Counted from the stretch's first letter, positions 6,501-59,799 are shown. The stretch is DNA of 64,000 nucleotides from Candidatus Poribacteria bacterium (GCA_965208635.1 OZ242349.1:4925696-4989695); one strand, 5' to 3'. Made by a program: numbers and translations. Notes: generated from the letters alone by a model not told the origin.

Positions 6501-6853
6501 GTCCCATCCACCCTTACTACGCCGTTTACATCCGAGACAGTGGGGATATCCGTTACGGGTGTATCAATGCGAAACAGGTGTTGGATCTATTTGAGACATC
6601 TGCCGTTGGGAAAGAGGACGCAATAGATGATTTATGTCTCTGGTTTGACCAAGAGACGGAATACGGCGATAACATGACACATTACAACAAACTTTTAGAC
6701 GCCGTCATTTCGCATATCACACGGTCACATACGAAGACACAAAGCCAAATTTTGAAGAGTGGGAGTCCTCGCGACGCAAAACTGACACCCGCATCCAAAG
6801 CCCCTAAAGACACTGGCGATTTCAAGTTGGTGACATGGCTGATTATCACATGA
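3575..6853 (+). CDS. Fused PLD-family nuclease domain (single HKD motif) plus SNF2-family DEAH-box helicase
   Basis: HGKMYHITNNGVDKAILGSSNFT (HxK...GSxN PLD signature) near residue 125. Helicase motifs: I DSVGLGKT, II DESH, III LSATP, C-terminal helicase domain with QRFGRIDRIG (motif VI). 1092 aa, ATG start. Confidence 0.8.
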   Translation: MLNKNTSLKSGIRDNLLRETVHDFLQQEIKNGSALSIVSAYFTIYAYEKMQHSLDKIEELRFLFGDPDFVKRMDPNNTDTKAFDMTDTGLQLNQQLRQKPIAKACAEWINEKVEIRTTRESNLIHGKMYHITNNGVDKAILGSSNFTVRGLGLSSNNSNIELNLEVDSDRDRTDLKAWFDELWNNDQLVEDVKNKVLAKLKQIGQDHPPELVYYKTLYELFREEIETRQTNEQTLEDIHLYDTKIWGKLYDFQKEGAKSVIARLLRHNGCILADSVGLGKTYTALAVIKFFELRNERVLVLCPKKLRENWARYPAHNSQASNEFLDDKFGYTLLSHTDLSRYSGDSGGVNLSDFNWQNFDLIVIDESHNFRNDTKPREDKDGSFRHSRYSRLLEEVIKEGTKTKVLMLSATPVNTSLTDLRNQIYLMTEKREDVFRNSLGVSNIRTLIRQAQKAFKTWEENTTRDGTRDKTELFNTLGVEFFQLLGGVSIARSRRHIIKYYAEEIKKIGEFPTQLDPVNCHPPTDLSGELSYKVLADQIGDFELSIYRPSSYVVDETAKQRLADEKQKFRFNQEDREKFLIGMMQTNFLKRLESSAYSLSKTLERTINKHDEMLEKIDRFQKNQNIADAGADVLPDDDEDDEEFLINRARNPYHLKELDCTRWKQDINQDKQTLTAVLEKVKSITSERDGKLKEIKKHIRDKVLNATKDKDGNPNRKLLIFTTFKDTAEYLYDHLSELISELGLNMALVSGDMTRTTCGENKFNDILTNFAPRARGRSEDISDNIDLMIATDCISEGQNLQDCDTVLNYDIHWNPVRIIQRFGRIDRIGSNNVSVKMINYWPTEDMEVYLRLRNRVESRMALADATASGDDDPLNEWAYEQAQMELNFRDKQLERLREEVLDLDDLSDGVVMSDFTLDYFFAQLLKYLERNRAKLEATSDGAYAVTNNENNPSENGVIFFLQQTNASTNKQEKTASPIHPYYAVYIRDSGDIRYGCINAKQVLDLFETSAVGKEDAIDDLCLWFDQETEYGDNMTHYNKLLDAVISHITRSHTKTQSQILKSGSPRDAKLTPASKAPKDTGDFKLVTWLIIT

Positions 6854-6864
6854 TTAACCCGTCC

Positions 6865-6891
6865 CCGGTAGGTGCGGTTTTTAACCGCACT
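6865..6891. repeat. REP-like hairpin, copy 2 (GGTGCGGTT ttt AACCGCAC), 12 nt after the helicase stop
   Basis: Read directly; it may also act as a transcript 3' stem-loop, but there is no T-tract. Confidence 0.5.
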
Positions 6892-6928
6892 ATAGGTGTC
6901 AATTTAAGAAAAATTGCATCATGGCATC

Positions 6929-7169
6929 GTAGGTTGGGTTGAACGGGGAATACCAGAGTCCAGTGAATTGAAAGAAACAGTACGCCTTCTCTATACACCT
7001 TCCATTTCAGAGATATGGAGTGAAACCCAACGTCTTTGCGGTTCCCGAAACGCTGCGGGTATGAAGTTGGGTTTCACTCTGTTCTTGGGTATATCCGAGG
7101 CTGTGTTGGATTTCAGGGATATTTGGAACATCGGCATCTGCCTTCTAAGTTCCGTTCAACCCAACCTAC
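6929..7169. mobile_element. MITE-like element (~241 bp) with terminal inverted repeats GTAGGTTGGGTTGAACG / CGTTCAACCCAACCTAC and an internal inverted pair GTGAAACCCAACG / GTTGGGTTTCAC; copy 1 of 2
   Basis: Perfect 16-17 bp terminal inverted repeats; a homologous copy sits at 14726-14957 with shared internal blocks. It lies between the helicase and methyltransferase genes and has no coding potential (ORF 6914..7177 is spurious). Confidence 0.55.
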
Positions 7170-7261
7170 AGTACTAAATTGACACCTATGGTGCAGAAAA
7201 TAATAACATCGGGCGGATAAAGCCCTCCAAAAAGAGGAGTCTGTTATAGGAACACAAAATT

Positions 7262-10200
7262 ATGAACAAAGAAGCAATCAAAGCCGCACTATCCGCAATA
7301 CCGACCGGTGACTTTTTAGAAAAGTCAAAAGACCTGCTCGGCACAATAGGCTACCGCAGTGAACTCACCCTTGAACTTTCCGGCACCGTCCACGACTTTT
7401 TTGACGAATTTCCACCACTCAACCCGAACACCAAAACCGAACAGGAATTCCGAAAACACGCTGAATCCGTGCAACTCGTGTTCCAATTCACAAGCGACGA
7501 AATCGCTGATGATCCACAGGGAACACTTTTTGAATCCGCTTCCTTCGACAAAGGAAACATAAAAAGTTTCCTGTTCTGTGCAGTCGAGCTAAAAGACAAC
7601 AACTATTCCCGCACCAAATACGCCGAGTTCACACGAGAAATCAACAAACGTCTGTTCGCACCCACTGTGATTTTATTTCGCGCCGGTAATCATCTGACAG
7701 TTGCATTTGCCGATCGCCGCCCAGACAAAACCGACGAGGACCGCGATGTGCTCGGACAGGTTACCCTCATCAAAGACATCCGTCTCCACAACCCACACCG
7801 CGCACATTTGGACATCCTCTCTGAACTCTCACTTGAAGCGTGCGTCAAGTGGATAGATGAAAAACAAAAACCGAAAAACTTCGACGGTCTACTGGGGGCA
7901 TGGCTCGCCAAACTGGACACCGAAGAACTCAACAAACAGTTCTATCGAAAGCTGTTCGCGTGGTACGAATGGGCAAGAAAAGAAGCAACGTTCCCGACAG
8001 ACGAAAACCGAATCATAGAACCGGAGGAGCATGTAATACGCCTCATCACACGTCTACTCTTCATCTGGTTTATTAAAGAAAAAGGGTTGGTGGCAGATGC
8101 GTTATTCAACAAATCGCAAATCCAAGACCTACTGGCAGAAGACGATTTTGATACCGGAGATTCCTACTATCGCGCCGTGCTACAGAACCTCTTTTTCGCC
8201 ACATTGAACACCGAAATAGACAAACGTAAGTTTAGCACCGTTGGCTACGCCACAAATCGTGATTTCTCGCGTTACCGCTATAAAGCTCAGATGCCTGACC
8301 CCGATAAACTCTTAGAACTGTTTGACCAAACCCCCTTCATCAACGGTGGATTGTTCGATTGTCTGGATAGTTGGGAAGCGACGGGTCAAGAGAGTTACCG
8401 AATCGACTGCTTTTCTGATAATCAGTACCATAAGTTGTCCATCCCCAACCGTCTCTTTTTTCATATAGAGCAAGGATTGATTCCGTTACTTGAGCATTAC
8501 AAATTCACCGTCGAGGAGAACACACCGATAGAGCAAGAGGTGGCATTGGACCCAGAACTACTCGGCAGAGTCTTTGAAAACCTACTTGCTGCCTACAACC
8601 CGGAAACCGGTGCGACGGTGCGAAAACAGACCGGATCCTACTACACCCCACGTGCTATCGTCGATTATATGGTGGAAGAAGCATTGGTCGCCACGTTATC
8701 CCAAAAATGCGATCCAACCGATGGCGACGCGCAACTCTGGAACGAACGGCTACGCTATCTTCTCGACTATGCCCAAGCCTTTGATGATGCCAACGAATGG
8801 TTCGATGATGCTGAAAAAGATGCCGTTGTCCGAGTAATTTCCGAACTCAAGATATTGGATCCCGCAGTGGGTTCCGGTGCATTTCCTATGGGGATGTTGC
8901 ACAAATTAACCCTCGCATTACGCCGACTTGACCCAGACAACACCCGCTGGGAAAAGTTACAGAAGGAACGCGCGCTCCAACGAGCAGAAATAGCGTTTGA
9001 TACACAAGACGACCCAACGCGGCGTGAAGAACTCATCGAAATCGACGAGACTTTCAAACGCTATCGAGACTCAGACTTCGGACGAAAGTTGTATCTCATC
9101 CAAAATAGTATTTTCGGCATAGACATCCAACCCGTGGCGTGCCAGATCGCCAAACTCCGCTTTTTCATATCCCTTGCCATTGAGCAGGAACCCGAGCAGG
9201 ATACACAGAACTTCGGCATCAAACCGTTGCCAAACTTGGAGACGCGCTTTATCGCGGCAAACACACTGATAGGACTCACAGCACAACGGATGCTGACAAG
9301 TAACACCGCGCGAGATTTGGAACGCGAACTGGGTGACAATCGCGAGCGGCATTTTCATGCGACCACCCGTCAACGCAAACGTGAATATCAGCGAAAGGAC
9401 GAGCAACTGCGATCCGAATTGGCAGCGGAGCTAAAAAGCATGGGCACCCCAGCAGATGATGCCGAAAAAATTGCAAAATGGGATCCGTATGACCAGAATG
9501 CCACCGCCGATTGGTTTGATCCTGAATGGATGTTCGGAGTCATAGATGGATTTGATGTGGTGATTGGCAATCCACCCTACATTAGTCATGATAAAATCCC
9601 AAAACAACTTAAAGCCCAAATCAAGAATCATTACCAATCATACGAGCCATTTGCAGACGTATACTGTTATTTTATTGAAAAAACCTTAGAACTACAGAGT
9701 AAGAGGAGCATTCTTAGTTTCATTACCTCAAATTCGTATTTAAGAGCAGAATATGGAGCACCAACCCGCCGCCTATTGCTAAGTAAAAACATACTACTTA
9801 GAATGTTAAATATTGAGGACTCACAGGTCTTCGAGAGTGCAATTGTTAACGTCGCGATAATTGTGTCTCGTACACCGACCAATTCCACTGATGATTCCTG
9901 CCTTGTTGTTAATTCCCCATTTTCAGGTAATAGTTTCGCCGATTTTGTGAAAATCAATGGCTTTAACTATCCTCAATCATACTTTAACTCAAAGTCATGG
10001 AATCTCGCAGAACCGCAGCTGATTGAACTTCAAAAGAAACTGGAATTATCAGGAAAAACTCTTAAAGAGTTTCAGACGAAAATTAGACTTGGTATTGCTA
10101 CTGGTAGCAACGAAGCTTTTCTCATAAATGAAGATCAAAAACGGGAATTTTATGAGAAAAATCCTGTCAATGCTGAAATCATAAAACCTATTTTGAGGGG

Positions 10201-10813
10201 ACGGGACATTTCACGCTACAGTTACAACCTACCCGGGCAGTATATTCTACTCACCAAAAATGGAGTTAATGTAGAAAGAGATTACCCTGATATACATGAA
10301 CATCTAAAGTCGTTCGGGGATAAGTTCAGAAATCGTGGAGCACAGGGACAACATTGGACTAATTTAAGAGCTTGTTCATTCTATGACGACTTCAAAAAGG
10401 AAAAAATCGTGTGGATCGAATTGTCAGATTTGGGACGATTCGCACTTTGTAATGAGGAAATCTATCTACTCAACTCGGCGTACTTTTTATTACCACCTTT
10501 GGGTATAGACTCAAAATTCCTTCTTGGCATCCTAAATTCAAGCACAATTCGCTTTTACCTGAATCTTGTCGCAGAAACAAGCGGAATGGGAACAAGCCGT
10601 TGGATCAACAATTATGTGAAAGAATTCCCAATACCAATAGTTGCTTATGAACAACAAACTGAAATCATTGAACACGTCGATCAACTTCTTGCGATCAAGC
10701 GCGCTGACTCGGATGCGGACACTTCCAATCTTGAAAATGAGATTGACAAACTGGTATACGCCTTATACGACCTAACCGACGATGAGATTGCGATTGTGGA
10801 GGGAAAAGAATGA
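7262..10813 (+). CDS. Gamma-class N6-adenine DNA methyltransferase, large Type IIG / PglX-like architecture with a possible N-terminal PD-(D/E)xK region and a C-terminal target-recognition region
   Basis: Motif I LDPAVGSGAFPMGML near residue 531, then motif IV VIGNPPYISHD near residue 769. The I-then-IV order defines the gamma class. About 530 aa precede motif I, with a possible D-x12-ELK (SFDKG...AVELK). A 414-aa C-terminal region is markedly AT-rich. 1183 aa. Confidence 0.8.
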   Translation: MNKEAIKAALSAIPTGDFLEKSKDLLGTIGYRSELTLELSGTVHDFFDEFPPLNPNTKTEQEFRKHAESVQLVFQFTSDEIADDPQGTLFESASFDKGNIKSFLFCAVELKDNNYSRTKYAEFTREINKRLFAPTVILFRAGNHLTVAFADRRPDKTDEDRDVLGQVTLIKDIRLHNPHRAHLDILSELSLEACVKWIDEKQKPKNFDGLLGAWLAKLDTEELNKQFYRKLFAWYEWARKEATFPTDENRIIEPEEHVIRLITRLLFIWFIKEKGLVADALFNKSQIQDLLAEDDFDTGDSYYRAVLQNLFFATLNTEIDKRKFSTVGYATNRDFSRYRYKAQMPDPDKLLELFDQTPFINGGLFDCLDSWEATGQESYRIDCFSDNQYHKLSIPNRLFFHIEQGLIPLLEHYKFTVEENTPIEQEVALDPELLGRVFENLLAAYNPETGATVRKQTGSYYTPRAIVDYMVEEALVATLSQKCDPTDGDAQLWNERLRYLLDYAQAFDDANEWFDDAEKDAVVRVISELKILDPAVGSGAFPMGMLHKLTLALRRLDPDNTRWEKLQKERALQRAEIAFDTQDDPTRREELIEIDETFKRYRDSDFGRKLYLIQNSIFGIDIQPVACQIAKLRFFISLAIEQEPEQDTQNFGIKPLPNLETRFIAANTLIGLTAQRMLTSNTARDLERELGDNRERHFHATTRQRKREYQRKDEQLRSELAAELKSMGTPADDAEKIAKWDPYDQNATADWFDPEWMFGVIDGFDVVIGNPPYISHDKIPKQLKAQIKNHYQSYEPFADVYCYFIEKTLELQSKRSILSFITSNSYLRAEYGAPTRRLLLSKNILLRMLNIEDSQVFESAIVNVAIIVSRTPTNSTDDSCLVVNSPFSGNSFADFVKINGFNYPQSYFNSKSWNLAEPQLIELQKKLELSGKTLKEFQTKIRLGIATGSNEAFLINEDQKREFYEKNPVNAEIIKPILRGRDISRYSYNLPGQYILLTKNGVNVERDYPDIHEHLKSFGDKFRNRGAQGQHWTNLRACSFYDDFKKEKIVWIELSDLGRFALCNEEIYLLNSAYFLLPPLGIDSKFLLGILNSSTIRFYLNLVAETSGMGTSRWINNYVKEFPIPIVAYEQQTEIIEHVDQLLAIKRADSDADTSNLENEIDKLVYALYDLTDDEIAIVEGKE

Positions 10814-11235
10814 ATACAGGACTAAAGATTTTCATTACCTATGCCCATAAAAATTCAGAAGCAAAGGACGAATTGATAACCAGCCTTGCCGTCCTGAAGC
10901 AAAACGGATTAATAGATGTCTGGCACGACAACGAAATTCTACCTGGAGACAAATGGCGAGATGAAATTTTCAACAACCTTGCTGATTCGGACATTCTACT
11001 CTACCTTACCTGTCGGTATAGTCTTGCCTCTGAAAATTGCAATAAAGAATTAACTGCTGCGTTAAATCCAAATATAAGAGTGATTCCGATTATCCTTGAA
11101 CATTGCGATTGGCTAAATCACCAACTTAGCGATTTTCAAGCTCTACCGGATAAAGGTAAACCTATTAACGAGTGGCAACCTGAGAGCAAAGGGTGGTTAA
11201 ATGTACTGCCATCGGAAATTTGGACCACTCTCTAA
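10810..11235 (+). CDS. TIR-domain protein, start overlapping the methyltransferase stop (ATGA); 3' end replaced by IS-derived sequence
   Basis: IFITYAHKNSEAKDEL (TIR box 1, F-I/V-S/T-Y/H...D). ...DSDILLYLTCRYSLASENCNKELTAAL matches the S-x-W/N-C-x-x-E-L motif that carries the catalytic Glu of TIR NADases. The last 10 codons (VLPSEIWTTL*) come from the IS left end starting at 11202, so the native C-terminus is lost. Confidence 0.6.
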   Translation: MNTGLKIFITYAHKNSEAKDELITSLAVLKQNGLIDVWHDNEILPGDKWRDEIFNNLADSDILLYLTCRYSLASENCNKELTAALNPNIRVIPIILEHCDWLNHQLSDFQALPDKGKPINEWQPESKGWLNVLPSEIWTTL

Positions 11236-11360
11236 ACCAAGATTGTGATACAATAACAATCTATTTGAAAGGAGCATTCCGATGGCGAAACGCAGAAGAT
11301 TTACCCCCGAATTTAAAGCAGAAGTTGTGCTGGAGGCACTTCGCGGTGAAACTTCCCAAG
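11202..11360 (+). mobile_element. Partial (left-end, 159 bp) copy of the same IS3-family element in inverted orientation relative to the full copy; contains IRL and the first 26 codons of orfA
   Basis: Perfect reverse-complement identity of 11202-11360 to 12363-12521. Confidence 0.7.
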
Positions 11361-12170
11361 AGGTGTCAGATACCCTAACGCCGAATGCAGGCGTTTGAGA
11401 TTATACACCTGTGTGATAAAATGACCGATGCTTTGTCGAGCCTCGGTAATATCTTGATAATCATTGAGGTGGACTTCTTCTTCCTTGAGCGTTCGGATCA
11501 ATCTTTCAGCGTATCCATTCTCCCAAGGACACCCGCGGCGAGCTACCGAAATCTCAACACCGTATGCTTGGAGTGTTGCGATATACGCCTTTGAAAGATA
11601 CTGCACGCCTTGATCGGAATGATGAATCTCCGGAATCCTGTCGTGTAAAGCTTGCTCTAAGGGTTTCAAAGTCAGAGTTTGCGTCAAGTCTTGACTGAGG
11701 TTCCATCCTCGAATCATACGTGTGAAGACATCCATGAGCAGCGCGACATAGATGAAGCGTCTGTTGAGGCGGACGTAGGTGATATCGCCGACCCAGACTT
11801 GATCCTGTCGGGAGATCTCAAGCGTCTGTATTCTATTGACCCACGGGTGTGAACCTTCAAGGGACCTCGTGGTTTGACAGACCCGTTTCACCGAGACCGA
11901 GAGGTTATCTTCTTTCATCAACCGAGCGACGCGTCGATACCCAACAGGGTGTCCTTGATTCACCAACAGTTTGGTGATACGTCGATACCCGTAGGTGGGA
12001 TACCGGGCAGCTAACTGCTGTATGTCTGATCGCAGGACTTCTTCAGACGGGTCGCTTTTGGGGTGATAATAGAGCGTGCTCTTGTTGAAACCCAGCACCT
12101 CGCAAATCAGTCGAACCGAATACCTCGTCCGCAACTCCTCAACGATGCGTCGCTGTTGAGACGGGGTCAA
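11313..12170 (-). CDS. IS3-family transposase OrfB (DDE integrase domain); the reading frame runs about 48 nt past the inferred IS end into the inverted partial copy
   Basis: WVGDITYV...HSDQGVQY...NGYAE catalytic-triad context; C-terminal LHSALGYLTP. Confidence 0.75.
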   Translation of the reverse strand: MTPSQQRRIVEELRTRYSVRLICEVLGFNKSTLYYHPKSDPSEEVLRSDIQQLAARYPTYGYRRITKLLVNQGHPVGYRRVARLMKEDNLSVSVKRVCQTTRSLEGSHPWVNRIQTLEISRQDQVWVGDITYVRLNRRFIYVALLMDVFTRMIRGWNLSQDLTQTLTLKPLEQALHDRIPEIHHSDQGVQYLSKAYIATLQAYGVEISVARRGCPWENGYAERLIRTLKEEEVHLNDYQDITEARQSIGHFITQVYNLKRLHSALGYLTPLGKFHREVPPAQLLL

Positions 12171-18764: not shown

Positions 18765-20159
18765 ATGCCTACTGTCATACCGCGCCTCGTTGTTGAGGTG
18801 TTCCAACATACAAACTTCCGGGGCAGAATGGGATATGTTGTAGAGCCTGTTCCCTTTACACGAGACATCGGATTTCAAGACAATATCTCTTCTGTTCGCG
18901 TCTATAAGGGTCCGAACTTCTCGTCAAACCCGAACTACAAAGTTATCCTTTACCAGCATCGTCACTTCCGGGGTCAAAAGTTAGCACTTGGACCTGGATT
19001 TTACCCAAACCTCCATGACACCGCTTACAACTTCGCCGACAGAATTTCATCAATCAACTTCGGTTCCACACTGGAAGTGGTTGGACCAGAATGGGGCACT
19101 ATTCCCCTGATTGTGGACTGCTATGAACACGTCGAATTCCGAGGCAGGAAAATCACGATCCTGCGCGATATCGCCAACCTACGGGATGCGCAAGGCGGAA
19201 CTTGGTTCGAGGATCGGATTTCGTCAATCCGTATCTTCAAAGGACCAGATTTCCCACGCCATGGGGCGGAGGTCGTCTTTTACGAACACCCTGACTTTGA
19301 AGGCGCACCTCTACCTATCCGTATGGAACCCTCGGAATATAAAAAAGAATTGCCGAACCTCCATTTACTCCCTCAAAATTTCGGAGACTCCATCTCCGCT
19401 GTGAAGATCGAAGGATGGGCATCTTCAGGTGAGTTCACAGAGATGGTATTTGAAGATGAGTTCATCGGAAACCGTATGCGTCCGGAATGGCGATGGGATG
19501 ATCCGAAGGGCGGCGGCTCCTGGGCAGAACGCCAAGGCTACTTAGAAATGCGAACTGAACCCGGGCAAGACCTCTGGCACGGTCCAGATGGTAGAAGTGG
19601 CGATATGAGCGCACCACGTCTCCTCATGGAAGTCGCTGGTGACTTCGCTATTGAAACTCGCATGCGAATTTCGCCACAACTGAAAGAACACGGTGGCTTA
19701 TTAGTATGGAAAAACCCTAACCGATTCCTCAGACTTGAGAAAACCTCGGGACCACACGCTTTCAGAGGCGATGTCCGATTTGAACGCCATGTTGGACGTT
19801 CATTCAACTTACGCGGGCGCAGCGGTGGGCTTAGAAATGTCCGAGAACTCTTCCTACGCATGGAACGCAGAGGGAACCAATTCTCTGCTTTCGCCAGCAG
19901 TGACGGCATCCAATGGAAAAGCTGTGGACAAACGAATGTCGGCATGGGACGTTCAGTGCATGTTGGATTACACGCACTATGTCCAGGGAACATCCCGCCA
20001 ACCTTAAGTCGTTTCGACTTCTTCCGAGTGTTCAAGCGGAAGAGCGAAGTCGCTGAATACCGTCCCATCGTTTCTGAACAACAGGGTCGACTGTCTGATG
20101 AAGAACGTGAACGTCAAATCGCCGATCGACGAGAACGCGCCATGCGCGACATGTTTTAG
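18765..20159 (+). CDS. Protein with three N-terminal beta/gamma-crystallin (Greek-key) domains plus a C-terminal concanavalin-like (DUF1349-like) domain
   Basis: Three repeats of the Y/F-x-H/E-x-N/D-F-x-G...DRISS(I/V)R signature (VILYQHRHFRGQ...ADRISSINF; VVFYEHPDFEG...GDSISAVKI). C-terminal APRLLMEVAGDFAIETRM...GGLLVW block. AAGGAG RBS. Confidence 0.5.
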   Translation: MPTVIPRLVVEVFQHTNFRGRMGYVVEPVPFTRDIGFQDNISSVRVYKGPNFSSNPNYKVILYQHRHFRGQKLALGPGFYPNLHDTAYNFADRISSINFGSTLEVVGPEWGTIPLIVDCYEHVEFRGRKITILRDIANLRDAQGGTWFEDRISSIRIFKGPDFPRHGAEVVFYEHPDFEGAPLPIRMEPSEYKKELPNLHLLPQNFGDSISAVKIEGWASSGEFTEMVFEDEFIGNRMRPEWRWDDPKGGGSWAERQGYLEMRTEPGQDLWHGPDGRSGDMSAPRLLMEVAGDFAIETRMRISPQLKEHGGLLVWKNPNRFLRLEKTSGPHAFRGDVRFERHVGRSFNLRGRSGGLRNVRELFLRMERRGNQFSAFASSDGIQWKSCGQTNVGMGRSVHVGLHALCPGNIPPTLSRFDFFRVFKRKSEVAEYRPIVSEQQGRLSDEERERQIADRRERAMRDMF

Positions 20160-20315: not shown

Positions 20316-21191
20316 ATGCGTCTGAAAAACAGTGTCTATCCTCAGAACAGACAATTTGTGAAATACTCACGACTCTACATCGTAACCTTTCTCCTTCTCG
20401 CGTGCCTCCTATGGAACGCGCAACCCACCGGAGCGATTATCGGTGCGGTTGAAGATGGTTTAATCGCTTACTGGTCCTTCGACAAAGACACAGTAAAAAT
20501 TAAAAAAGAGGCGGTAGATATCTTGTCAGGACTTGTTGCCGCTGTTCATGGGGATCCCGAAGCTGCACCTGCCGGCGATTGCAAAGTCGGTGAGTGCATC
20601 CTTTTTGATGGAAGTGTTGATCGCCTCCTCGTTGAAGACTCAAACCCAGCAAAAATCGATCGTGACTGGGAAGAGATCACCCTCGAATGTTGGGCATATA
20701 TCAACGCCTTGGACGACAGTTGGAATCGGATTATCTCACTTGACAATATGCCAACCAACACTGCTGTCGCGAGCCTCTATTACGACGATGACGACAACCA
20801 ACACGGTTTTTTCGTCAGATCCGGCGGTAAAAATACGGTGGCAGCACAGGACAACGTCCTGGAGGACATTCCACTTGAAGAGTGGTTGCACCTCGTAGGC
20901 ACCTATGATGGCGCAACGGTTCACTATTATGTGAATGGAAAACAGGAAAAAAAGTACGCCATGAAGGGTGGTAAGATTGCCAAAGGAGGGCTCCTCCTCG
21001 GCATCGGAGATCGATCAGATGGGTGCGATTGCGATACCATCCAGGGGTATATTGACGAATTTCGCATCTACGATCGCGTCCTGAGCATCGCAGAGGTCGA
21101 GAACAACATGAAAGCCACAGGGCTTGATGTCAGTCCTTCCGCAAGCAAACTAAGCGTTACATGGGGGCACATCAAATCAAGACGAAGGTAG
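20316..21191 (+). CDS. Secreted LamG-like (Laminin_G_3, concanavalin-like) protein; paralog 1 of 4 with a conserved C-terminal tail
   Basis: Signal-peptide-like N-terminus; LIAYWSFD...GDC..GE...FDG...WAYI...IDEFRIYDRVLSIAEVE LamG_3 pattern; C-terminus ...KLSVTWGHIKSRRR; AGGAGGG RBS. Confidence 0.65.
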   Translation: MRLKNSVYPQNRQFVKYSRLYIVTFLLLACLLWNAQPTGAIIGAVEDGLIAYWSFDKDTVKIKKEAVDILSGLVAAVHGDPEAAPAGDCKVGECILFDGSVDRLLVEDSNPAKIDRDWEEITLECWAYINALDDSWNRIISLDNMPTNTAVASLYYDDDDNQHGFFVRSGGKNTVAAQDNVLEDIPLEEWLHLVGTYDGATVHYYVNGKQEKKYAMKGGKIAKGGLLLGIGDRSDGCDCDTIQGYIDEFRIYDRVLSIAEVENNMKATGLDVSPSASKLSVTWGHIKSRRR

Positions 21192-21293
21192 ATAACCAAA
21201 GCTTGTAAGCCCAAGCAACGCGCCGGGCTGGATATACGTTTAGGCATGTTTTTACTAAGCCTGCCTAAACGAACCGCAAGGAAAATTAAAAAT

Positions 21294-22301
21294 ATGGAAA
21301 CGATTGGAGTTGGTGTTATTGGATGCGGTGGCATGGGCAGAAGCCTTGCCACCAGCGCACACGCTGTTGAGGGAATAGCGGTCATCTCCGTCAGTGATGT
21401 GCAAGAAGCATTGGCTGAAAAACTTGCTACAGACCTTGGTGTGTCCTATACGTTAGACTACCACGAATTACTCGCCGATGATCGGATTCGTGCAGTCCTA
21501 ATCGCGTCACCGCCGTTTATGCACTCACCGATGGCAGTCGATGCCGCGAACGCAGGAAAACACGTTTTTTCCGAAAAACCGATGGCGCCCACGTTGGAGG
21601 CTTGCGACGCTATGATTGCCGCCGCAGAGGATAACGGTGTCAAACTTACCATCGGTTTGGTATGTCGCTATCACGGGACGCATTCCGTTGTTCGCGAAAT
21701 CGTTCAGAGCGGAGAACTCGGTGCCCCTGCCTGTATGATGGTGCATCGCATCGGTGGATCGTGGGGTAGTGGGTATAGTCACACACCATGGCGACTGGAA
21801 CGTGCGAAGTCTGGTGGGACCCTCATGGAAATCAACGCCCACGAAGTCGACTTTATGCGCTGGACCTGTGGTGATGTAACATCCGTCTATGCCGCCGGTG
21901 GACAATACGGACCAGATAAAAGCGACTATCCAGATGTGGTGCTTGCTTCCTTGCAGTTTGCAAACGGAGCAATCGGCTTGCTCCATTCCAGTCATGTCTC
22001 CGCTGTTGGTGGTTATGGCGGACGGGTCGATTGTGAAGGTGGTTCCATCTATTTTCCACAGATATGGGGAGGCGATGCCGCCATCCAGATAAAACCTTTT
22101 GAGGGTGAAGGACGACAGATTAAAGTGGCAGATATTAAGGTGCCGCCGCCGGTTCAAGAAGAGATTCGCGTCTTCGCAGAAGCAATCCGTAACGACACGT
22201 CACCACCTATCACAGGTTTAGACGGTCGCGCCGCCGCTGAAATCGCATTAGCCGCATATCAATCTGTTGAGAGTGGACAACCCGTACCGTTGCCCCTTTA
22301 A
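21294..22301 (+). CDS. Gfo/Idh/MocA family oxidoreductase
   Basis: METIGVGVIGCGGMG Rossmann start; ATG at 21294 after the conserved leader CGAACCGCAAGGAAAATTAAAAAT. The ORF-track ATG at 21246 would add 16 non-Rossmann residues. Confidence 0.65.
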   Translation: METIGVGVIGCGGMGRSLATSAHAVEGIAVISVSDVQEALAEKLATDLGVSYTLDYHELLADDRIRAVLIASPPFMHSPMAVDAANAGKHVFSEKPMAPTLEACDAMIAAAEDNGVKLTIGLVCRYHGTHSVVREIVQSGELGAPACMMVHRIGGSWGSGYSHTPWRLERAKSGGTLMEINAHEVDFMRWTCGDVTSVYAAGGQYGPDKSDYPDVVLASLQFANGAIGLLHSSHVSAVGGYGGRVDCEGGSIYFPQIWGGDAAIQIKPFEGEGRQIKVADIKVPPPVQEEIRVFAEAIRNDTSPPITGLDGRAAAEIALAAYQSVESGQPVPLPL

Positions 22302-22430
22302 TGGCAAGTGGTTTTCTGCTTCTCTTCATAAACATCAAATTGCAAGCCCGTAATGAAATGGAGGGCGGATCTACGGCAGGGGACGTGAACGCTTAACCCC
22401 CTTGAACGAACCGCAAGGAATAATTAAAAC

Positions 22431-23369
22431 ATGAAAATTTCAGTCTGGGACGGTGGACTTTCAGATAGCTACCTCAAACAGGTCACACAACTCGGGGCAG
22501 ACTGTATCGACTTCGGAGGCGGTAACGCCTTTCCCGGGGTCGAAGAACAAGGTTACCCGGATTTGGATGAGGTCCTGAAAATCAAAAAACGGATCCGATC
22601 CTGGGGACTCGACATCAACCGTGTAACACTCCCGAATATCACAGAAAAGTTTATGCAGGGTCAACCCGATGGTGAAAAAGAATTAGAGAACACCTGTAAT
22701 GCCCTCCGGGTTTTCGCAGAAGCCGGCGTCCCTATCGCACGCCAAAGGTTTTGGGGTGATACATTTGACTACCTCATGACGCGTTATTCATCCGTACATA
22801 GGGGCGGTTACACCTCCCGTGGCGAAAGCCGCGCCGCAACCCAAAATCCACCACCGACACCGACGATGGAAGCCCTTGACGAGTGGTGGAAACGTTTCAC
22901 CGAAATCTACGGAGCACTCGTTCCTATCGCCGATGAATACGACATTAAACTCGCTATCCATCCATCAGACGTGCCGAATCCTGATACACCGCTCGGCAGT
23001 CTCGGATTCCACCGTGTCACCGATACCTTTCCCAGCAGGAACGTGGGCTATCTCTATTGTTGCGGCACTCGGGCGGAAGCCGGTGGCAGTGCGATTGTCC
23101 TTGACGAAATCAATAACTACGGACGTAAAGGGCGTATCTTCATGGTTCATCTACGGAACGTCCGCGGTAGCCTGGCAACAGCCGGAGCGTTTGAGGAAGT
23201 CCTGCTTGACGATGGTGATATGAATGCTTTCAAAATCGTCCGAGAATTACAAAAGGTCGGATTTGACGGATGCATCAACGCCGATCACATCCCGAAATTG
23301 GAAGGCGATGTTGGATTAGCTTACTCCGTCGGCTACATCAAGGCACTGTTCGCGGCACTGGCGGCATAA
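22431..23369 (+). CDS. Xylose-isomerase-like TIM-barrel protein (possibly UxuA/mannonate-dehydratase-like)
   Basis: ATG directly after the same CGAACCGCAAGGAATAATTAAAAC leader; weak family-level resemblance only. Confidence 0.4.
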   Translation: MKISVWDGGLSDSYLKQVTQLGADCIDFGGGNAFPGVEEQGYPDLDEVLKIKKRIRSWGLDINRVTLPNITEKFMQGQPDGEKELENTCNALRVFAEAGVPIARQRFWGDTFDYLMTRYSSVHRGGYTSRGESRAATQNPPPTPTMEALDEWWKRFTEIYGALVPIADEYDIKLAIHPSDVPNPDTPLGSLGFHRVTDTFPSRNVGYLYCCGTRAEAGGSAIVLDEINNYGRKGRIFMVHLRNVRGSLATAGAFEEVLLDDGDMNAFKIVRELQKVGFDGCINADHIPKLEGDVGLAYSVGYIKALFAALAA

Positions 23370-23508
23370 CCCTTAAAAATCCGTAAAGTAGCTTCCAAAG
23401 CTTACCTCTCGCAGGCAAGATTCCCTATACCTCAAAACATTTGGAGATTTAACGAAAAATCTGCCTTAGAGGAGAGGAATACCAACAAATAAGGTTCCTA
23501 TTGTCGCT

Positions 23509-24303
23509 ATGATCCAAACTCTTTTTTTTCGTGCGCAGTTTCACGCCCTCGTTCTGTTCTATTGCCTCTTACCCATAGTAACACAAGCACAACTGCCACG
23601 TGATGAACTTGTTCTCTATATGTCCTTTGACGATCCCCAAAGTAATGAAGTTATAGATGGTTCGACATCCAGGAATGACGGAACGATTATGGAAGCATCT
23701 ATTGCGAAGGGCAAGGGTAAGTATGGCGACGCGATGGAATTCAAAGGTAGAGATAATTATGTCCTAATCAGGAATTCTGAGTCCCTCTCAATGGCAGATG
23801 AAGTCACGATTGCTGCTTGGGTTAACTGGAATGATGCGCCTGGAGACGGCTGGCTGTGTATAATGGCAAATGGAACGCAAGGTGGACCGTGGGAGAATTA
23901 CGGGCTCTTTGTTAATCGCGGCAATCGCTACTTCTATTTTACGCTCTCGGCAGGTGGTAAAGGGGCACACAGGGTGATGAATTCCGGCCATAACACTACT
24001 GAACCTGGAAAATGGACCCACTGTGCCTGTACTTATGATGGCAACAGTGCCAAAATCTACATTGATGGAAATTTGGTGAATACAGTACCTCATGGGGCTG
24101 AATTGACTGCTGGAGATCAGGACCTGCGACTTGGCCATCGTGATGGGAGTAACCATTGGTACAACGGCTATCTTGATGAGGTAGTAGTATTCTCAGTTGC
24201 TTTAGATGCAGATCAAGTTAAAGAGTTGAAAAATAACATCGTCGATGTCAAAGTGAGCGGTAAGTTAACGACAGTCTGGGCGAAAGTAAAGAGTAGAACA
24301 TAG
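23509..24303 (+). CDS. Secreted LamG-like (Laminin_G_3) protein; paralog 2
   Basis: Signal peptide (LVLFYCLLPIVTQAQ); LVLYMSFDD...DGS...GKYGDAMEF.G...AAWVNW...YLDEVVVFSVALDADQV; C-terminus KLTTVWAKVKSRT. Confidence 0.65.
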   Translation: MIQTLFFRAQFHALVLFYCLLPIVTQAQLPRDELVLYMSFDDPQSNEVIDGSTSRNDGTIMEASIAKGKGKYGDAMEFKGRDNYVLIRNSESLSMADEVTIAAWVNWNDAPGDGWLCIMANGTQGGPWENYGLFVNRGNRYFYFTLSAGGKGAHRVMNSGHNTTEPGKWTHCACTYDGNSAKIYIDGNLVNTVPHGAELTAGDQDLRLGHRDGSNHWYNGYLDEVVVFSVALDADQVKELKNNIVDVKVSGKLTTVWAKVKSRT

Positions 24304-24493
24304 CCCAATGTCTTGTGCTATACCATCGCTTCCAGTTCGACAGAAAATCTCCAAATTTGAACGAAAATTGCGTCGTCAACATTAATTGTGCGAATCTACT
24401 TCGCAAGAGCCAGCCTAAAAGATTCAGAGCCATTTAGTTTATATATTTACTTTATATCTGTGAATATTTTTTACTCTTTTTAACTCCCTCAAC

Positions 24494-24521
24494 TCGGTAG
24501 GAGCGGTTTCTAACCGCTCCG
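24494..24521. repeat. REP-like hairpin, copy 4, variant GGAGCGGTT tct AACCGCTCC with a compensatory stem change
   Basis: Read directly; the T-to-A change in the left arm is matched by an A-to-T change in the right arm relative to the other three copies. Confidence 0.5.
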
Positions 24522-24604
24522 AATCGTCAAAAGAAGCGTAAAAACCCGAATAAATTCTTAAAACTAAATGACCCTGTAAAAGATTTGACATAGATTGAAA
24601 TTCA

Positions 24605-25660
24605 GTGTATACTTGCCAAAATGAGTCTTTCGATTGTAATAATGTGCCTGTGTACACCTTAGATCCCTTGACCCCTCAAACCCAAGAGAAATGGGATGCC
24701 ACGCTTCGGCAATGTCCGGATGCGACTGCCTTTCAAAGTCTGGCATGGCGAGATGCATTAGCGAATGCGTTCAGCCAACTCACCCCAACTTACCTGCTCA
24801 TCAATCAAGCTAATTCAGTGATAGGTGGGTTGCCTGCTTTCGTTTTTCAACCCATACCGAGCATCCGTCTATGGCATTCAATGCCGTGGAATCTGTTTGG
24901 CGGTGTACACCTTATCGAATCAGTAGAAATAAATCCTGAAATACTACTAAAGTCCATTGAAACCGCAGCAGTAGCAAAGGGGTGGTGTGAAATTCGTTGG
25001 ACGCTGACCCCCAAGTGCACCGCAATCTATGGTAATCTCTTCACTGAAATGGGCTACGCGCGGACAGATCACTTCACGCATCTTTTGAAAACGAACGGAG
25101 ATGTTGAATCCCTCTGGCATGCCTATAACAAACGGGTACGGGGTGCCGTCAGAAAGGCAGAAAAATCGGGTGTGACGGTTACGGACAGTGAAGAGGCGTT
25201 ATCAACCTTTTACGACATGTATCTCATCACAGTCAAACGGTTAGGGGGCACCCCGAAACCGTGTGCGCTTATGCAGACACTCCTGGAGCGGAAAATCGCC
25301 AAACTTGCTATCGCTATATATCGCGGCACGATTATCGCAGGACTTCTCTATCTACACTTCAATAAGACTGTAACGTTATGGTGTGAAGCATCTGTGCCAG
25401 CGTTCTTGAAATATCGTCCTAACAACGCGATTTTCCACCACATCATCACACAAGCGTGTCGTGAACAATACGAATGGGTGGATTTTGGAGCATCTCCACC
25501 AGAGAACACAGGTTTAATTGCCCATAAGGAACAGTATCGCGCAGTCCGGACAAACTTCGCCAGTTACACAAAGGTCATTTCGCCACTGAAAAGGGCGTTG
25601 TGGACAAAGAGTGAAGGGGCACTTCGCCAAATTTATACATGGATGCAAAGGAGTGGTTAA
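24605..25660 (+). CDS. FemAB-like / BioF2-like GNAT-fold acyltransferase (Acetyltransf_6-like)
   Basis: Size and general pattern (two GNAT-like halves; LAWRDAL...; HHIITQACREQYEWVDFG). The ORF-track start is a GTG; the true start is unclear. Confidence 0.4.
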   Translation: MYTCQNESFDCNNVPVYTLDPLTPQTQEKWDATLRQCPDATAFQSLAWRDALANAFSQLTPTYLLINQANSVIGGLPAFVFQPIPSIRLWHSMPWNLFGGVHLIESVEINPEILLKSIETAAVAKGWCEIRWTLTPKCTAIYGNLFTEMGYARTDHFTHLLKTNGDVESLWHAYNKRVRGAVRKAEKSGVTVTDSEEALSTFYDMYLITVKRLGGTPKPCALMQTLLERKIAKLAIAIYRGTIIAGLLYLHFNKTVTLWCEASVPAFLKYRPNNAIFHHIITQACREQYEWVDFGASPPENTGLIAHKEQYRAVRTNFASYTKVISPLKRALWTKSEGALRQIYTWMQRSG

Positions 25661-25752
25661 CGGTTATCAGCTGTTAGTTGTTGGAAGAATGGTTTTCAGT
25701 TCGCTTAACCATCTATCTGAAAACTGATAACTGAAACTGACAACTATAAATA

Positions 25753-27111
25753 ATGAAAACTACTCGTAAACCCAATTTAATCTTCGTTTTCGGGGACCAG
25801 CATCGCCAATGTGATGTCGGATGCGCAGGAAATCCACAAGTCCAAACGCCTGCGATGGATAAACTCGCACAGGAAGGGATGTTCTTTCCCAATACCTTCA
25901 CCAATGTCCCGATATGCGTGCCAGCACGCGGATGTCTGATGACAGGCAAATATCCGTTGAATCACAAAGCTGTCTCCAATGATCTACCACTCCCGCTAAC
26001 AGAAACTGGCATCGCAGAGGTATTCAGAGAAGCAGACTACGCCACAGGTTACATCGGCAAATGGCACCTCGGCGGTATGCCGAGAGACAAGTTCATCACA
26101 CCTGAGATGCGCTTCGGCTTCGATCATTGGGTCGGATGGAATTGTCACCACGACTATTTCAATGCCCCTTACCACGATTCCGATGGAAATCAGATGCAGA
26201 TTGACGACTATGAACCGGAATTTCAGACCGACAAAGCCATTGAATACTGCCGAGAGCATGCCGATGAACCCTTCTGTCTCTATATGAGTTGGGGACCACC
26301 ACACAATCCGTATGAACACGTGCCGGAACGTTACACAGCGATGTATCCACCCGAAGAAATTCAGTTGCGCCCGAACGCCGTGGACACACCCGAAACGCGG
26401 AAAGATCTATCCGGCTACTACGCGCATATCACGGCTCTGGATGAAAATCTCGGACGTTTGATGACCGCGCTCGACGAAATTGGTATCGCTGACGATACGA
26501 TCCTTGTGTACACGTCTGACCACGGTGATATGCTCGGTAGCCACGGACATGTCAGGAAAGAACGTCCGTGGGACGAATCCAGTCGTATTCCTTTCATGAC
26601 GCGTTGGCCCCGCAAAATTCCAGCAGGCGTTACCCGCGACACCTTGCTAAGTCTCGTCGATTTCATGCCGTCAATGCTGTCGCTGTGCGATTTACCGATT
26701 CCAGACGGAGTGGAAGGTATAGACCTTTCAGAAGCAATGCTCGGTAACACAATTGACGAACCACAATCCGTCCTGCTTGAAGTTCCATTGCACGGAAGTG
26801 AAGGATTTAACTTCGGTATTCGTGAGTGGCGTGGTGTTCGCACGCATCGCTATACCTACGCGCGCCACTACGACGGAACGGGATGGTTGCTTTACGACAA
26901 CGACAACGATCCCTATCAGTTGAACAATCTCATCGACGATGAAGACTCACAAGACCTTCGCGTAGAACTCGAAGCGGAACTCCAACGATGGTTAACCCAT
27001 GTAAACGATCCGTGTCTGTCCGGACTGGAACACATCCGGCAACTCGGCTTATCAGAGTTGTGGAATATCAGCGAACAACGGTTCGGTGGAAGAAATCCGC
27101 GTTGGGCATAA
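25753..27111 (+). CDS. Sulfatase (formylglycine-dependent arylsulfatase family)
   Basis: CVPARGCLMTGKYP matches the C-x-P-x-R sulfatase signature with downstream GKWHLG and SDHGD motifs. Confidence 0.8.
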   Translation: MKTTRKPNLIFVFGDQHRQCDVGCAGNPQVQTPAMDKLAQEGMFFPNTFTNVPICVPARGCLMTGKYPLNHKAVSNDLPLPLTETGIAEVFREADYATGYIGKWHLGGMPRDKFITPEMRFGFDHWVGWNCHHDYFNAPYHDSDGNQMQIDDYEPEFQTDKAIEYCREHADEPFCLYMSWGPPHNPYEHVPERYTAMYPPEEIQLRPNAVDTPETRKDLSGYYAHITALDENLGRLMTALDEIGIADDTILVYTSDHGDMLGSHGHVRKERPWDESSRIPFMTRWPRKIPAGVTRDTLLSLVDFMPSMLSLCDLPIPDGVEGIDLSEAMLGNTIDEPQSVLLEVPLHGSEGFNFGIREWRGVRTHRYTYARHYDGTGWLLYDNDNDPYQLNNLIDDEDSQDLRVELEAELQRWLTHVNDPCLSGLEHIRQLGLSELWNISEQRFGGRNPRWA

Positions 27112-33485: not shown

Positions 33486-34316
33486 TTATTCATAGCCGCG
33501 TTTTACGCGTGCCCACGTCATTGGAAGTTTGTCCGCCGGATCAACAGCAAATGCGCCAGAGATATTTTGGTTAATCTCCGCTTCTGTCAGTGCTTTATCA
33601 TAAGCGCGGACGATTGCGAACGATCCGTTGAAAGTCCGACGACGTTCATCGAAGGAATTGGCACCGATTGAAATGTCGTTTATCGGTAATTTCTTATCGA
33701 ATTCAAAACCGGCTTGTTTGCTGACTTCTTTACCGTCTTGATACGCCACAATCGACTTGCCACTCGTGCCGACGACCGCTATCCAGGTCCAGACCCCTTC
33801 TTCAAGTTTCAGGTTAAGCGGTTGAACACCTTGTTTACTCCCCTTGGCATGGATGGAAACATCCAAATTCTGACCGCCGACTATCCAAAGTCGAATTCCC
33901 TGCTGACCTTCCCGTGGACTGTTCTGGAAACCGGCGAAATGGTGCTCTTCAACAAAAAAATCACCATTGCGTCTACAGAGGAACTCCAAGGTCCAATCTT
34001 GGAAAAACAGTGGTGTGTTTTTTGCGGGTGGACCGCCAAAGGTTGAAAGAGACTCCGTGGTTGTGTAATACTTTGAATTCGGTTCACTGATACCGAGTGC
34101 AGGAATTTTAATTTCACCCTCTTCGAGGTCCATTGGTTTTTCTGTGGCAAGCAATTCACCGCCTTCAGTGCCGAGATTTTCCCATGCATCCGGGTGGGCA
34201 GGGTTGTCAGCGGCATTGAGGTAGAGCACAGGATCCTCAACAACGTTAGCAAATGCGAGCGTGCTCGCCATTACCAGAAAAAATATCGTAGTGTAACTTG
34301 AAATAAAGATTTTCAC
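33486..34316 (-). CDS. Secreted LamG-like (Laminin_G_3) protein; paralog 3
   Basis: GTG start 6 nt after GGAGGA; signal peptide; C-terminus ...DKLPMTWARVKRGYE. Confidence 0.6.
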   Translation of the reverse strand: MKIFISSYTTIFFLVMASTLAFANVVEDPVLYLNAADNPAHPDAWENLGTEGGELLATEKPMDLEEGEIKIPALGISEPNSKYYTTTESLSTFGGPPAKNTPLFFQDWTLEFLCRRNGDFFVEEHHFAGFQNSPREGQQGIRLWIVGGQNLDVSIHAKGSKQGVQPLNLKLEEGVWTWIAVVGTSGKSIVAYQDGKEVSKQAGFEFDKKLPINDISIGANSFDERRRTFNGSFAIVRAYDKALTEAEINQNISGAFAVDPADKLPMTWARVKRGYE

Positions 34317-52052: not shown

Positions 52053-52284
52053 TGTAAAAGGTAGAAACTAATGGGCGGGGAAACCCCCTGCTGACTCTCA
52101 CTGCGAGGCAACACGCGCAAATGTAATACATTGTCCCGCAAGTCCACATGTTGTCCTCGGATGCCACACGCGCATCCGTTCTGGCGCGACGGATTTAGTC
52201 TCTCCCCAGACGAAATCCAGCGTTGATTCGCAAAACACCTCGCCTTTTATACAGCACTTGCTAAAAAGGAGGCACCAACCTGTA

Positions 52285-54571: not shown

Positions 54572-55612
54572 ATGCCAAGAAAATTTACAATAAAATCAAA
54601 CAACCCTTTGTTTTTTAATTGGGGGTGGTTATTCGCCATCTCACTCGCTTTCCATTTGAGCCATAACGCTACAGCTGAAAACTGGATCCAAAAAACAAAC
54701 ATGCCAATTCCCAGACTTTTTTTCTCCGTATCCGCTATTAACAACCAACTTTACACTATCGGTGGGATGCTCGCTGAACCCGTTGACTTTGTTGATGCTT
54801 ATGACCCAGATGAGGATAAATGGGTTCAGAAAGCGAGTCTGCCAGCGGCACGCGCTGGTGTTGTAACCTGCGTCGCCGATGGGAAGATCTACGCTATCGG
54901 CGGGTGGAGCGGACAAGCTCCAGCCCTCGGAACCGTAGAAGAATATGATCCCGTAACTGATACATGGACCCAAAAAGCAGATATGCCGACATCCCGTTCC
55001 TTTTTTACAGCGACCGCTGTAGCTGGAAAAATTTACGCCATTGGTGGTGTCGCACAAAATGTTGGCCCCATATTACCGACGGTAGAAGAATATGATCCCG
55101 TAACTGATACATGGACCCAAAAAGCAGATATGCCGACACCGGTTTCAGGAATGGCTGCCGCGAGCATTGATGGGAAAATATATCTTATTGGTGGGACACC
55201 TGCGGTGCAAGGCCCCGCACTCGAAACAGTTCAAGAATATGACCCAGCCACTGATACATGGACCCAAAAAGCAGATATGCCAACCTCTCGAACAGCTTTG
55301 GCAGTGGGCGTTGTGACGGGAAGAATTTACGCCATTGGCGGGACCGCCAGTGTGCAAGGTCCTGGGCTAACGAACGTTGAAATATACGATCCCGATAGCG
55401 ACACATGGACAGAAGCCGTCGAAATGCTAACGGGGAGAGTGTTCTTAGGAGTTGACACTATTGCGAATAAAATCTATGCTGTTGGGGGTGTTGCAGAAGG
55501 ATTGGGGCCAGCGATTCTTCCAACTGTTGAGCAATTCGCTCCGAGCGGTCTCAGCGTAGCAGGACTGGATAGATTTCTTACAATCTGGGGTGAAATTAAG
55601 AAAACGAATTAG
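54572..55612 (+). CDS. Secreted Kelch-repeat beta-propeller protein (6 blades)
   Basis: Six repeats of ...YAIGG...YDP.TDTWT.KADMPT.R...; signal peptide. Confidence 0.7.
   Translation: MPRKFTIKSNNPLFFNWGWLFAISLAFHLSHNATAENWIQKTNMPIPRLFFSVSAINNQLYTIGGMLAEPVDFVDAYDPDEDKWVQKASLPAARAGVVTCVADGKIYAIGGWSGQAPALGTVEEYDPVTDTWTQKADMPTSRSFFTATAVAGKIYAIGGVAQNVGPILPTVEEYDPVTDTWTQKADMPTPVSGMAAASIDGKIYLIGGTPAVQGPALETVQEYDPATDTWTQKADMPTSRTALAVGVVTGRIYAIGGTASVQGPGLTNVEIYDPDSDTWTEAVEMLTGRVFLGVDTIANKIYAVGGVAEGLGPAILPTVEQFAPSGLSVAGLDRFLTIWGEIKKTN
54935..54991 (+). repeat. 57-bp intragenic perfect DNA repeat inside the Kelch gene (second copy at 55082-55138, a third diverged copy near 55232-55290)
   Basis: Identical string GTAGAAGAATATGATCCCGTAACTGATACATGGACCCAAAAAGCAGATATGCCGACA at both places. 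Confidence 0.7.
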
Positions 55613-59709: not shown

Positions 59710-59799
59710 TTTTACCTCCATTTGCGAACGGACGGTTTAATTATCACCAATTACGCTGTTTTTCGTCACAGGCTCCCGGTATCGAAAATTAGGGAGAAC

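Follow-up and report, generated by a model that had tools for sequence, protein, structure and literature searches.

We analyzed a stretch of 64,000 nucleotides (nt) from the genome of a Candidatus Poribacteria bacterium (GCA_965208635.1 OZ242349.1:4925696-4989695; the whole stretch is hereafter called the window), in which four genes encode proteins that combine a signal-peptide-like N-terminus, a laminin G-like domain (LamG_3; PF13385) and a short conserved tail at the extreme C-terminus. Gene A (20316-21191, + strand) encodes 291 amino acids (aa) with the LamG_3 domain at residues 119-261 (E = 4.3e-24) and the tail VSPSASKLSVTWGHIKSRRR (21129-21188, + strand). Gene B (23509-24303, + strand; 264 aa; LamG_3 at residues 80-238, E = 1.9e-29) ends in VKVSGKLTTVWAKVKSRT (24247-24300, + strand). 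Gene C, which starts with GTG (33486-34316, - strand; 276 aa; LamG_3 at residues 129-249, E = 1.8e-13), ends in VDPADKLPMTWARVKRGYE (33489-33545, - strand), a tail to which the database fragments P0066 and P0070 are nearly identical. Gene D (58942-59721, - strand; 259 aa; LamG_3 at residues 83-225, E = 3e-24) ends in VSPQAKLAMSWAKLKAER (58945-58998, - strand). A preliminary description of the window had listed these four genes as paralogs that share a C-terminal tail and are otherwise divergent. All four open reading frames (ORFs) lie where it had placed them and match Pfam Laminin_G_3 above the 27.6-bit cut-off (E values from 1.8e-13 to 1.9e-29); for gene D the locus was right, but position 59709, given as its end, is an internal ATG, and the longest ORF starts at 59721. 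The divergence was also as described, B, C and D being only 23-26% identical to protein A. A protein 100% identical to B is present in the database, and those orthologues of B that bear names are from Candidatus Poribacteria. Orthologues of B down to 47% identity retain ...V-x-P-x-G-K-L-[AT]-T-x-W-G-x-[LIVM]-K followed by 1-7 residues, while the preceding linker drifts.

The tail is not a product of chance. In the six-frame translation of the window, KL..[TSV]W[AG][KRH][VIL]K matched exactly four times, each time 3-4 residues before a stop codon, and the same motif matched nothing in 200 shuffles of the window. Further, a hidden Markov model (HMM) built only from tails of other genomes scored the four tails at 12.3-17.1 bits (A, 13.8; B, 17.1; C, 17.0; D, 12.3), as compared with a maximum of 4.2 bits on the ORFs of the shuffled window. 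The shared stretch is longer than first described, because a V located 5 or 6 residues ahead of the K is also common to the four proteins (V-x-P/V-x-x-K-L...). The full motif comprises approximately 17 residues, [LF]-[AP]-V-[EDS]-[PA]-x-G-K-L-[AT]-T-T-W-[GA]-x-[LIVM]-K, and is followed by a non-conserved stub of 1-8 residues that is rich in R, S, Q and K.

A fifth carrier, overlooked in the preliminary description, is encoded by gene E (54572-55612, + strand; 346 aa), which combines a signal-peptide-like N-terminus, a Kelch beta-propeller (Pfam Kelch_1, E = 1.7e-71) and a diverged tail, VAGLDRFLTIWGEIKKTN (55556-55609, + strand), in which R-F replaces K-L; the protein terminates in ...SVAGLDRFLTIWGEIKKTN. 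The HMM built from external tails gave this tail 4.6 bits, and its assignment as a diverged copy therefore rests on BLASTP and on Kelch-tail fragments. BLASTP aligned protein E end to end, tail included, with P0333, a Kelch protein of 337 aa that bears a canonical tail and ends in ...SVEAKDKLATSWGKIKSN; the two tails aligned as SVAGLDRFLTIWGEIK (E) and SVEAKDKLATSWGKIK (P0333). P0333 is the sole informative relative of the same size, the other matches being mostly giant multi-Kelch proteins, and homology of the tail is further backed by the Kelch-tail fragments P0069 and P0096.

To determine the distribution of the tail, a DNA pattern for GK[LF][AT]TxW[GA]x[LIVMF]K, with no constraint on the position of the stop codon, was scanned against one genome per species (185,579 species). 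At least 119 loci were found; the counts that follow are samples from the matches listed, and taxon labels are record titles. The titles named Poribacteria at 110 loci and "uncultured bacterium" at 6; the remaining titles were one each of Pseudomonadota (L040) and Planctomycetota (L085), both with a real tail, and Elusimicrobia (L075). A stop codon followed after 1-12 codons (mode, 3) in 130 of the 131 matches that could be assessed, and the sole internal match was that in the Elusimicrobia membrane protein, which appears to be a chance match. Positions that the pattern had left free were also conserved: 126 of 130 had V at -4, preceded by [LF]-[AP] and followed by [EDS]-[PA]. For G, L, T, V and K, the tails draw on all of the synonymous codons. 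Synonymous codons thus vary freely and the constraint is therefore on the peptide, which rules out a DNA or RNA element conserved across the 3' ends of the genes.

The motif Lys was the final residue in none of the 131 poribacterial matches listed; a stub of 1-12 residues always followed it. This could reflect a scissile bond after the Lys or mere protection of the Lys. Two tail-only ORFs from metagenomes (L154 and L157) stop exactly at the motif Lys.

The tail is joined to its passengers via a variable linker and occurs on several folds. Among the 112 tail-bearing genome proteins listed, Pfam detected LamG_3 in 67, LTD in 6, DUF1080 in 5, CBM9 in 3 and LRR in 2, and Kelch, He_PIG and CBM_4_9 in one each; many had no Pfam match. 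A tail profile built from tandem-duplicated tails retrieved 68 short fragments ending in the tail from the protein database; these indicate the range of passengers and are unsuited to counting. Upstream of the tail they contained the ends of LamG_3 domains, Kelch (P0069, P0096), PD40 (P0082), ankyrin (P0088) and DUF1080 (P0058, P0101). One genome locus (L120, 2937-10123) encodes six PD40 propeller paralogues in tandem, all of which have both a signal peptide and a tail.

Some ORFs at these loci are unusual. The PD40 array includes a seventh, frameshifted copy and a 40-aa ORF, P0099, which consists of a signal peptide and a tail only. We considered whether such 40-aa ORFs (P0099, P0104) point to a sorting enzyme; they are remnants at the end of an array of PD40-tail genes and no obvious machinery was found nearby. 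Genes for an extracytoplasmic function (ECF) sigma factor, an anti-sigma factor and an HtrA-like PDZ protease lie within a few kb of the same array. At two other loci, long ORFs begin with an ECF sigma-70 region and continue into propellers of the Kelch or BNR/Sortilin-like type (L111, 29-1885, + strand; L081, 4311-7244, - strand), and that of L111 ends in the tail. These fusions may be artefacts of ORF extension across adjacent genes or real sigma/anti-sigma-propeller fusions.

Signal-peptide-like N-termini were present in 97% of 125 N-terminally complete carriers as compared with 29% of 472 other ORFs of the same loci, and in all five carriers of the window. Other exported proteins of the window lack the tail, and the tail is therefore selective.

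The tail lies outside the LamG fold. The PF13385 model ends at residue 261 of 291 in A, 238 of 264 in B, 249 of 276 in C and 225 of 259 in D, 20-30 residues short of the tail. In an AlphaFold2 (AF2) model of protein B, made from an alignment of 22 sequences (mean predicted local distance difference test [pLDDT] score, 85), the jelly roll (pLDDT ~90) was complete by residue 228 and was followed by a helix at residues 234-242. The tail (residues 246-264) had pLDDT values below 50 and no secondary structure. Structure prediction thus indicates that the tail is not the final strand of the jelly roll.

We found the same motif in a second context. LRR/cadherin proteins are also encoded at poribacterial loci, and their C-terminal ~90 residues form a domain (LLxNYPNPFNPETWIPY...RKMLIRK) which matches FlgD_ig and scores 45 bits with TIGR04183 (cut-off, 23 bits), a model for the C-terminal domains (CTDs) of type IX secretion system (T9SS) cargo. 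In one of these proteins, a tail-like sequence lies just ahead of the CTD. Metagenome contigs, which carry no taxon labels, were scanned for W[GA]x[LIVMF]K followed by N[YF]PNPFNP after a gap of 12-24 nt, and at least 120 loci were found. Of the 124 matches listed, 109 had a gap of 18 nt and 12 one of 15 nt; overall, the motif lies 5-7 residues ahead of the CTD. The upstream residues, which the search had not constrained, read [AS]-V-[EN]-P-x-G-K-[LQ]-x-x-T-W-G-x-[VI]-K in these matches, which is the motif of the tail. The motif is followed by (R/Q)-T-x-L-(Y/F/L)-Q-N-Y-P-N-P-F, and the stop codon lies ~101 residues past the W. Conversely, the tails match the junction pattern [AS]-V-[EDN]-P-x-[GD]-K-x-x-x-T-W-G-x-[VIL]-K.

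The profiles of 153 tail-only and 104 pre-CTD sequences agreed position by position where the searches had left positions unconstrained: V was present in 96% of tail-only and 80% of pre-CTD sequences, P in 51% and 68%, and G in 88% and 56%, and K reached 87% in the set in which it was unconstrained. TIGR04183, PF18962 and FlgD_ig all start at NYPNPF and thus past the motif, and TIGR04183 scored above its cut-off. In an AF2 model of a fragment with motif and CTD (P0151; 49 sequences), the sandwich had pLDDT values above 90 and the motif (residues 1-21) values below 50. The best PDB matches of the CTD model were FlgD, followed by PorU, PorZ and substrate CTDs bound to the T9SS. The organism names on the best 120 database matches to motif plus CTD were Candidatus Poribacteria only.

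In long-contig genomes of poribacterial type, the pre-CTD Trp is often replaced by Leu (...LTTLGEVK..., ...KRLVTLGDIK...) or, in P0169, by Gln; carriers of these variants are L117 (7540-7998, - strand), L242 (6001-6354), P0153, P0157, P0159-P0161, P0168, P0169 and P0171. Tail-only proteins keep the Trp without exception. This difference may reflect a functional split between the tail-only and pre-CTD contexts.

Tail-only genes are not damaged CTD genes. When a CTD HMM was applied to six-frame translations of the window and 121 loci (~1 Mb), seven CTDs were detected, none of which was in the window or followed a tail-only gene; the reading of tail-only genes as CTD genes with a frameshift or truncation is thereby rejected. 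Contigs that had been picked for motif plus CTD contained 63 pre-CTD, 25 tail-only and one internal occurrence among the matches listed, and on one contig of 5.9 Mb an LTD protein ending in ...KNKLTTTWSELKSSR is encoded beside WD40-CTD genes. Further, passengers that are homologous to one another (LRR, Kelch, PD40/WD40) carry either the tail or a CTD at their end. The motif thus occupies the very C-terminus or a site at constant spacing ahead of a CTD, and occurs essentially nowhere else. Because the same motif occurs at a fixed 5-7 residues before CTDs and tail-only genes coexist with motif-plus-CTD genes, the tail is the pre-CTD junction motif minus the CTD.

We then searched for earlier descriptions of the tail. 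No Pfam or NCBIfam model covers it (NCBIfam was tried to E <= 1), a PDB sequence search with the tail profile gave no significant match, and the literature that we found on Poribacteria, LamG/laminin, sorting signals and the T9SS does not describe the motif. In this respect the tail is new, as had been proposed. It is not unconnected to known systems, because the same motif precedes T9SS type A-like CTDs; the tail represents, with the CTD missing, one part of an established type of C-terminal sorting region, that of the T9SS-CTD type.

Type A CTDs are described in a review of T9SS effectors as Ig-like export signals that the sortase PorU removes, whereupon the new C-terminus is attached to anionic lipopolysaccharide (LPS) (PMC10202324). 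The same review places motifs A-E inside the CTD fold (PMC10202324). Our motif, for which disorder is predicted, precedes the part covered by the TIGR04183 model; a relation to "motif A" is possible. Kamke et al. (2014; PMC3909097), working with incomplete single-cell genomes of Poribacteria, reported TIGR04183 domains but found no Por structural genes, and wrote that the pathway for these proteins "remains to be revealed".

The tail carriers resemble T9SS type A CTD cargo (TIGR04183/PF18962/PF13860) in several respects. They have an N-terminal signal peptide (here, a heuristic call); the conserved element is C-terminal on varied, mostly binding or enzymatic passengers; and the motif occurs 5-7 residues upstream of bona fide TIGR04183 domains, the region of CTD removal and attachment in characterized systems (PMC10202324). 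Unlike a type A CTD, which is an Ig-like sandwich of 70-100 residues, the tail is ~17-25 residues long and disordered, and neither TIGR04183 nor PF18962 matched the four LamG proteins (for NCBIfam, even at E <= 1). Further, structural genes of the T9SS are reported to be absent from Poribacteria (PMC3909097), and a conserved motif ahead of the CTD is not described in Bacteroidota, whose PorU cleavage is given as sequence-independent (PMC4804311).

Sortase and exosortase signals (LPXTG, PEP-CTERM, GlyGly-CTERM) share with the tail a short motif near the C-terminus of many exported paralogues, restriction to a lineage, a basic-rich stub after the motif and a variable fold ahead of it. However, no hydrophobic transmembrane segment follows the tail motif, its stub being short with a negative mean hydrophobicity, and no NCBIfam CTERM model matched the tail. 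A cognate sorting enzyme was not identified among the neighbours of the at least 119 loci. Conserved extreme C-terminal residues and a terminal aromatic residue, the marks of PDZ ligands and of the beta-signals of outer-membrane proteins, were not found, because the stub varies in sequence and length. In design only, the tail also resembles the cargo-loading peptides of encapsulins and the encapsulation peptides of bacterial microcompartments, in which varied folded cargo is joined via a variable linker to a conserved peptide at the terminus, ~10-20 residues in length and disordered alone. The cargos of those systems are cytoplasmic and lack signal peptides, whereas 97% of tail carriers possess signal-peptide-like N-termini.

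Taken together, the tail is a modular, strictly terminal, disordered tag that is conserved at the protein level on signal-peptide-like proteins and is identical to the pre-CTD motif. We predict from sequence, with moderate confidence, that it acts as a sorting or attachment tag that is recognized in trans at the mature C-terminus. The motif would mark the C-terminal end of the mature passenger and would be read by a trans-acting component of the envelope, either a receptor or a PorU-like sortase/attachment enzyme, with the outcome that lectin-like proteins are retained at or attached to the cell envelope. In proteins with motif and CTD, the CTD would provide translocation across the outer membrane, and its subsequent removal would expose a C-terminus resembling that of tail-only proteins. 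In the latter, including the five of the window, the tag would be exposed from the outset, or possibly once the stub has been trimmed. The earlier suggestion of a C-terminal sorting, secretion or anchoring signal is consistent with the strictly C-terminal position, modularity, signal-peptide-like carriers, protein-level selection and lineage-wide occurrence of the tail, although the function is a prediction.

Several results weigh against this prediction. Of the six CTD proteins that score strongly at the poribacterial genome loci, five have no motif ahead of the CTD, and motif and CTD are therefore not obligatorily coupled. Enrichment analysis of neighbours at the at least 119 loci yielded no candidate reader, but only metabolic genes and CTD-bearing LRR proteins. 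The export signal of Bacteroidota is the CTD itself, and cleavage by PorU is described as sequence-independent (PMC4804311); a conserved motif at the junction is thus without precedent in any characterized T9SS. Because tail-only proteins lack a CTD, they have no evident route across the outer membrane. Moreover, signal peptides were judged by eye and by a crude hydrophobicity heuristic and not by a dedicated predictor, so that the description of the carriers as secreted agrees with their N-termini at that level of evidence. Finally, disorder was predicted by AF2 from modest alignments (22 and 49 sequences) and is compatible with folding on binding.

It is possible, and we propose this only tentatively, that the motif is instead the substrate signature of an undiscovered poribacterial system for envelope sorting or attachment that is distinct from the T9SS. 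A dedicated enzyme or receptor would recognize ...V-E-P-x-G-K-L-A-T-T-W-G-x-I-K at the end of exported proteins, trim the stub or an entire FlgD_ig-type CTD, and anchor the protein on a glycan, lipid or scaffold of the surface. If it exists, such a system would build a lectin-rich coat by which sponge symbionts meet host glycans, and would explain "T9SS" sorting domains in bacteria that are reported to lack Por genes.

A direct interaction with the membrane appears unlikely. The tail could bind membrane or LPS as a peptide with no protein partner, its basic, Trp-containing segment tethering the passenger non-covalently to anionic lipids or glycans. Periplasmic enzymes such as PBP5 of Escherichia coli have C-terminal amphipathic anchors, and the invariant Trp flanked by Lys, the stub rich in R and K, and the disorder of the isolated tail in AF2 models are all consistent with such tethering. 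However, when the four tails were examined as amphipathic helices, the mean hydrophobicity was negative and the hydrophobic moments were moderate and inconsistent. In addition, near-invariant G, K, L, T, W, K and V(-4) over hundreds of paralogues fit a specific site better, and the fixed spacing of 5-7 residues to the CTD suggests joint recognition by a protein.

The tail may alternatively be recognized by periplasmic quality control, namely a chaperone or a protease of the HtrA/Ctp type with a PDZ domain, and would then control folding or turnover but not location. We regard this as rather improbable. A conserved, disordered C-terminal motif on exported proteins would suit it, as would the HtrA-like gene (Trypsin_2 plus PDZ) that accompanies an ECF sigma/anti-sigma pair near the PD40-tail array of L120, and a Trypsin_2 plus TPR protein is encoded in the window. 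PDZ domains, however, read the last 3-4 residues and the free carboxylate, which here vary in sequence and length. The protease neighbour was met once and is not among the recurrent neighbours, and the fixed position before CTDs is left unexplained.

Even less probable, in our view, is that the tail is a functionless vestige, a junction peptide remaining after an ancestral CTD was lost by truncation. The occurrence of the same motif at a fixed spacing before CTDs in related proteins and the presence of tail-only and motif-plus-CTD genes on the same contigs would be expected from such a loss. Yet the motif is the best conserved segment of paralogues that are as divergent as A is from B, C and D, orthologues with as little as 47% identity retain it despite the drifting linker, and synonymous sites vary freely around an unchanged peptide. 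Approximately 155 tail ORFs in ~1 Mb retain the motif, with no CTD remnants downstream.

The preliminary description had also offered the tail as the structurally required last beta-strand of a LamG_3 subfamily, and although all four first-listed proteins and 60% of the wider carriers are LamG_3 proteins, this explanation is refuted, also by the test that the description itself had set, because both the Pfam model and the jelly roll predicted by AF2 end ahead of a disordered tail that also occurs on Kelch, PD40, LTD, DUF1080, CBM9 and LRR proteins, and the same motif precedes T9SS-like CTDs.

The commonest neighbours of the tail genes are metabolic. At 20316-27111 of the window, tail genes are interleaved with genes for a Gfo/Idh/MocA protein (21246-22301), a UxuA-like TIM barrel (22431-23369) and a sulfatase (25753-27111). 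Across the at least 119 loci, the commonest neighbours without a tail are Gfo/Idh/MocA (16 loci) and PhyH dioxygenase (11 loci), and sulfatase and aldo-keto reductase also occur. Because tail genes interleave with genes of sugar and sulfate metabolism in both the window and these loci, the tagged lectin-like proteins are suggested to belong to glycan-utilisation loci. Directly upstream of gene A, 18765-20159 encodes a protein of 464 aa with beta/gamma-crystallin and DUF1349 (ConA-like) domains and with neither signal peptide nor tail; it is a cytoplasmic ConA-like relative, in contrast to the tagged exported proteins. Directly upstream of the Kelch-tail gene E, 52258-54540 encodes a DUF5916 protein of 760 aa with a signal-peptide-like N-terminus, which ends in ...MTYWWNR and could be an outer-membrane partner of tail proteins. 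The region 3575-12170 is likely a restriction-modification or defence islet. It encodes a PLD-nuclease with an SNF2/ResIII helicase (3575-6853; 1092 aa), an N6-methylase of the Eco57I/MmeI type that bears a TaqI_C specificity domain (7262-10813; 1183 aa), a small TIR_2 protein whose start overlaps the methylase stop codon (10810-11235), and an rve transposase of the IS3 family on the - strand (11313-12170).

Poribacteria are dominant uncultured symbionts of sponges with many lectin-like and eukaryote-like proteins, the export and display of which await explanation. The tag described here is sharply defined and easily searchable, and it marks a large set of signal-peptide-like proteins, five of which are encoded in a window of 64 kb. 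Its tie to the T9SS-like junction provides a handle on the tagged proteome, on the search for a reader and on processed C-termini in sponge metaproteomes. Further, the results suggest that the stretch just ahead of type A-like CTDs can be informative in its own right, which is not predicted by the model of sequence-independent PorU cleavage given for Bacteroidota.

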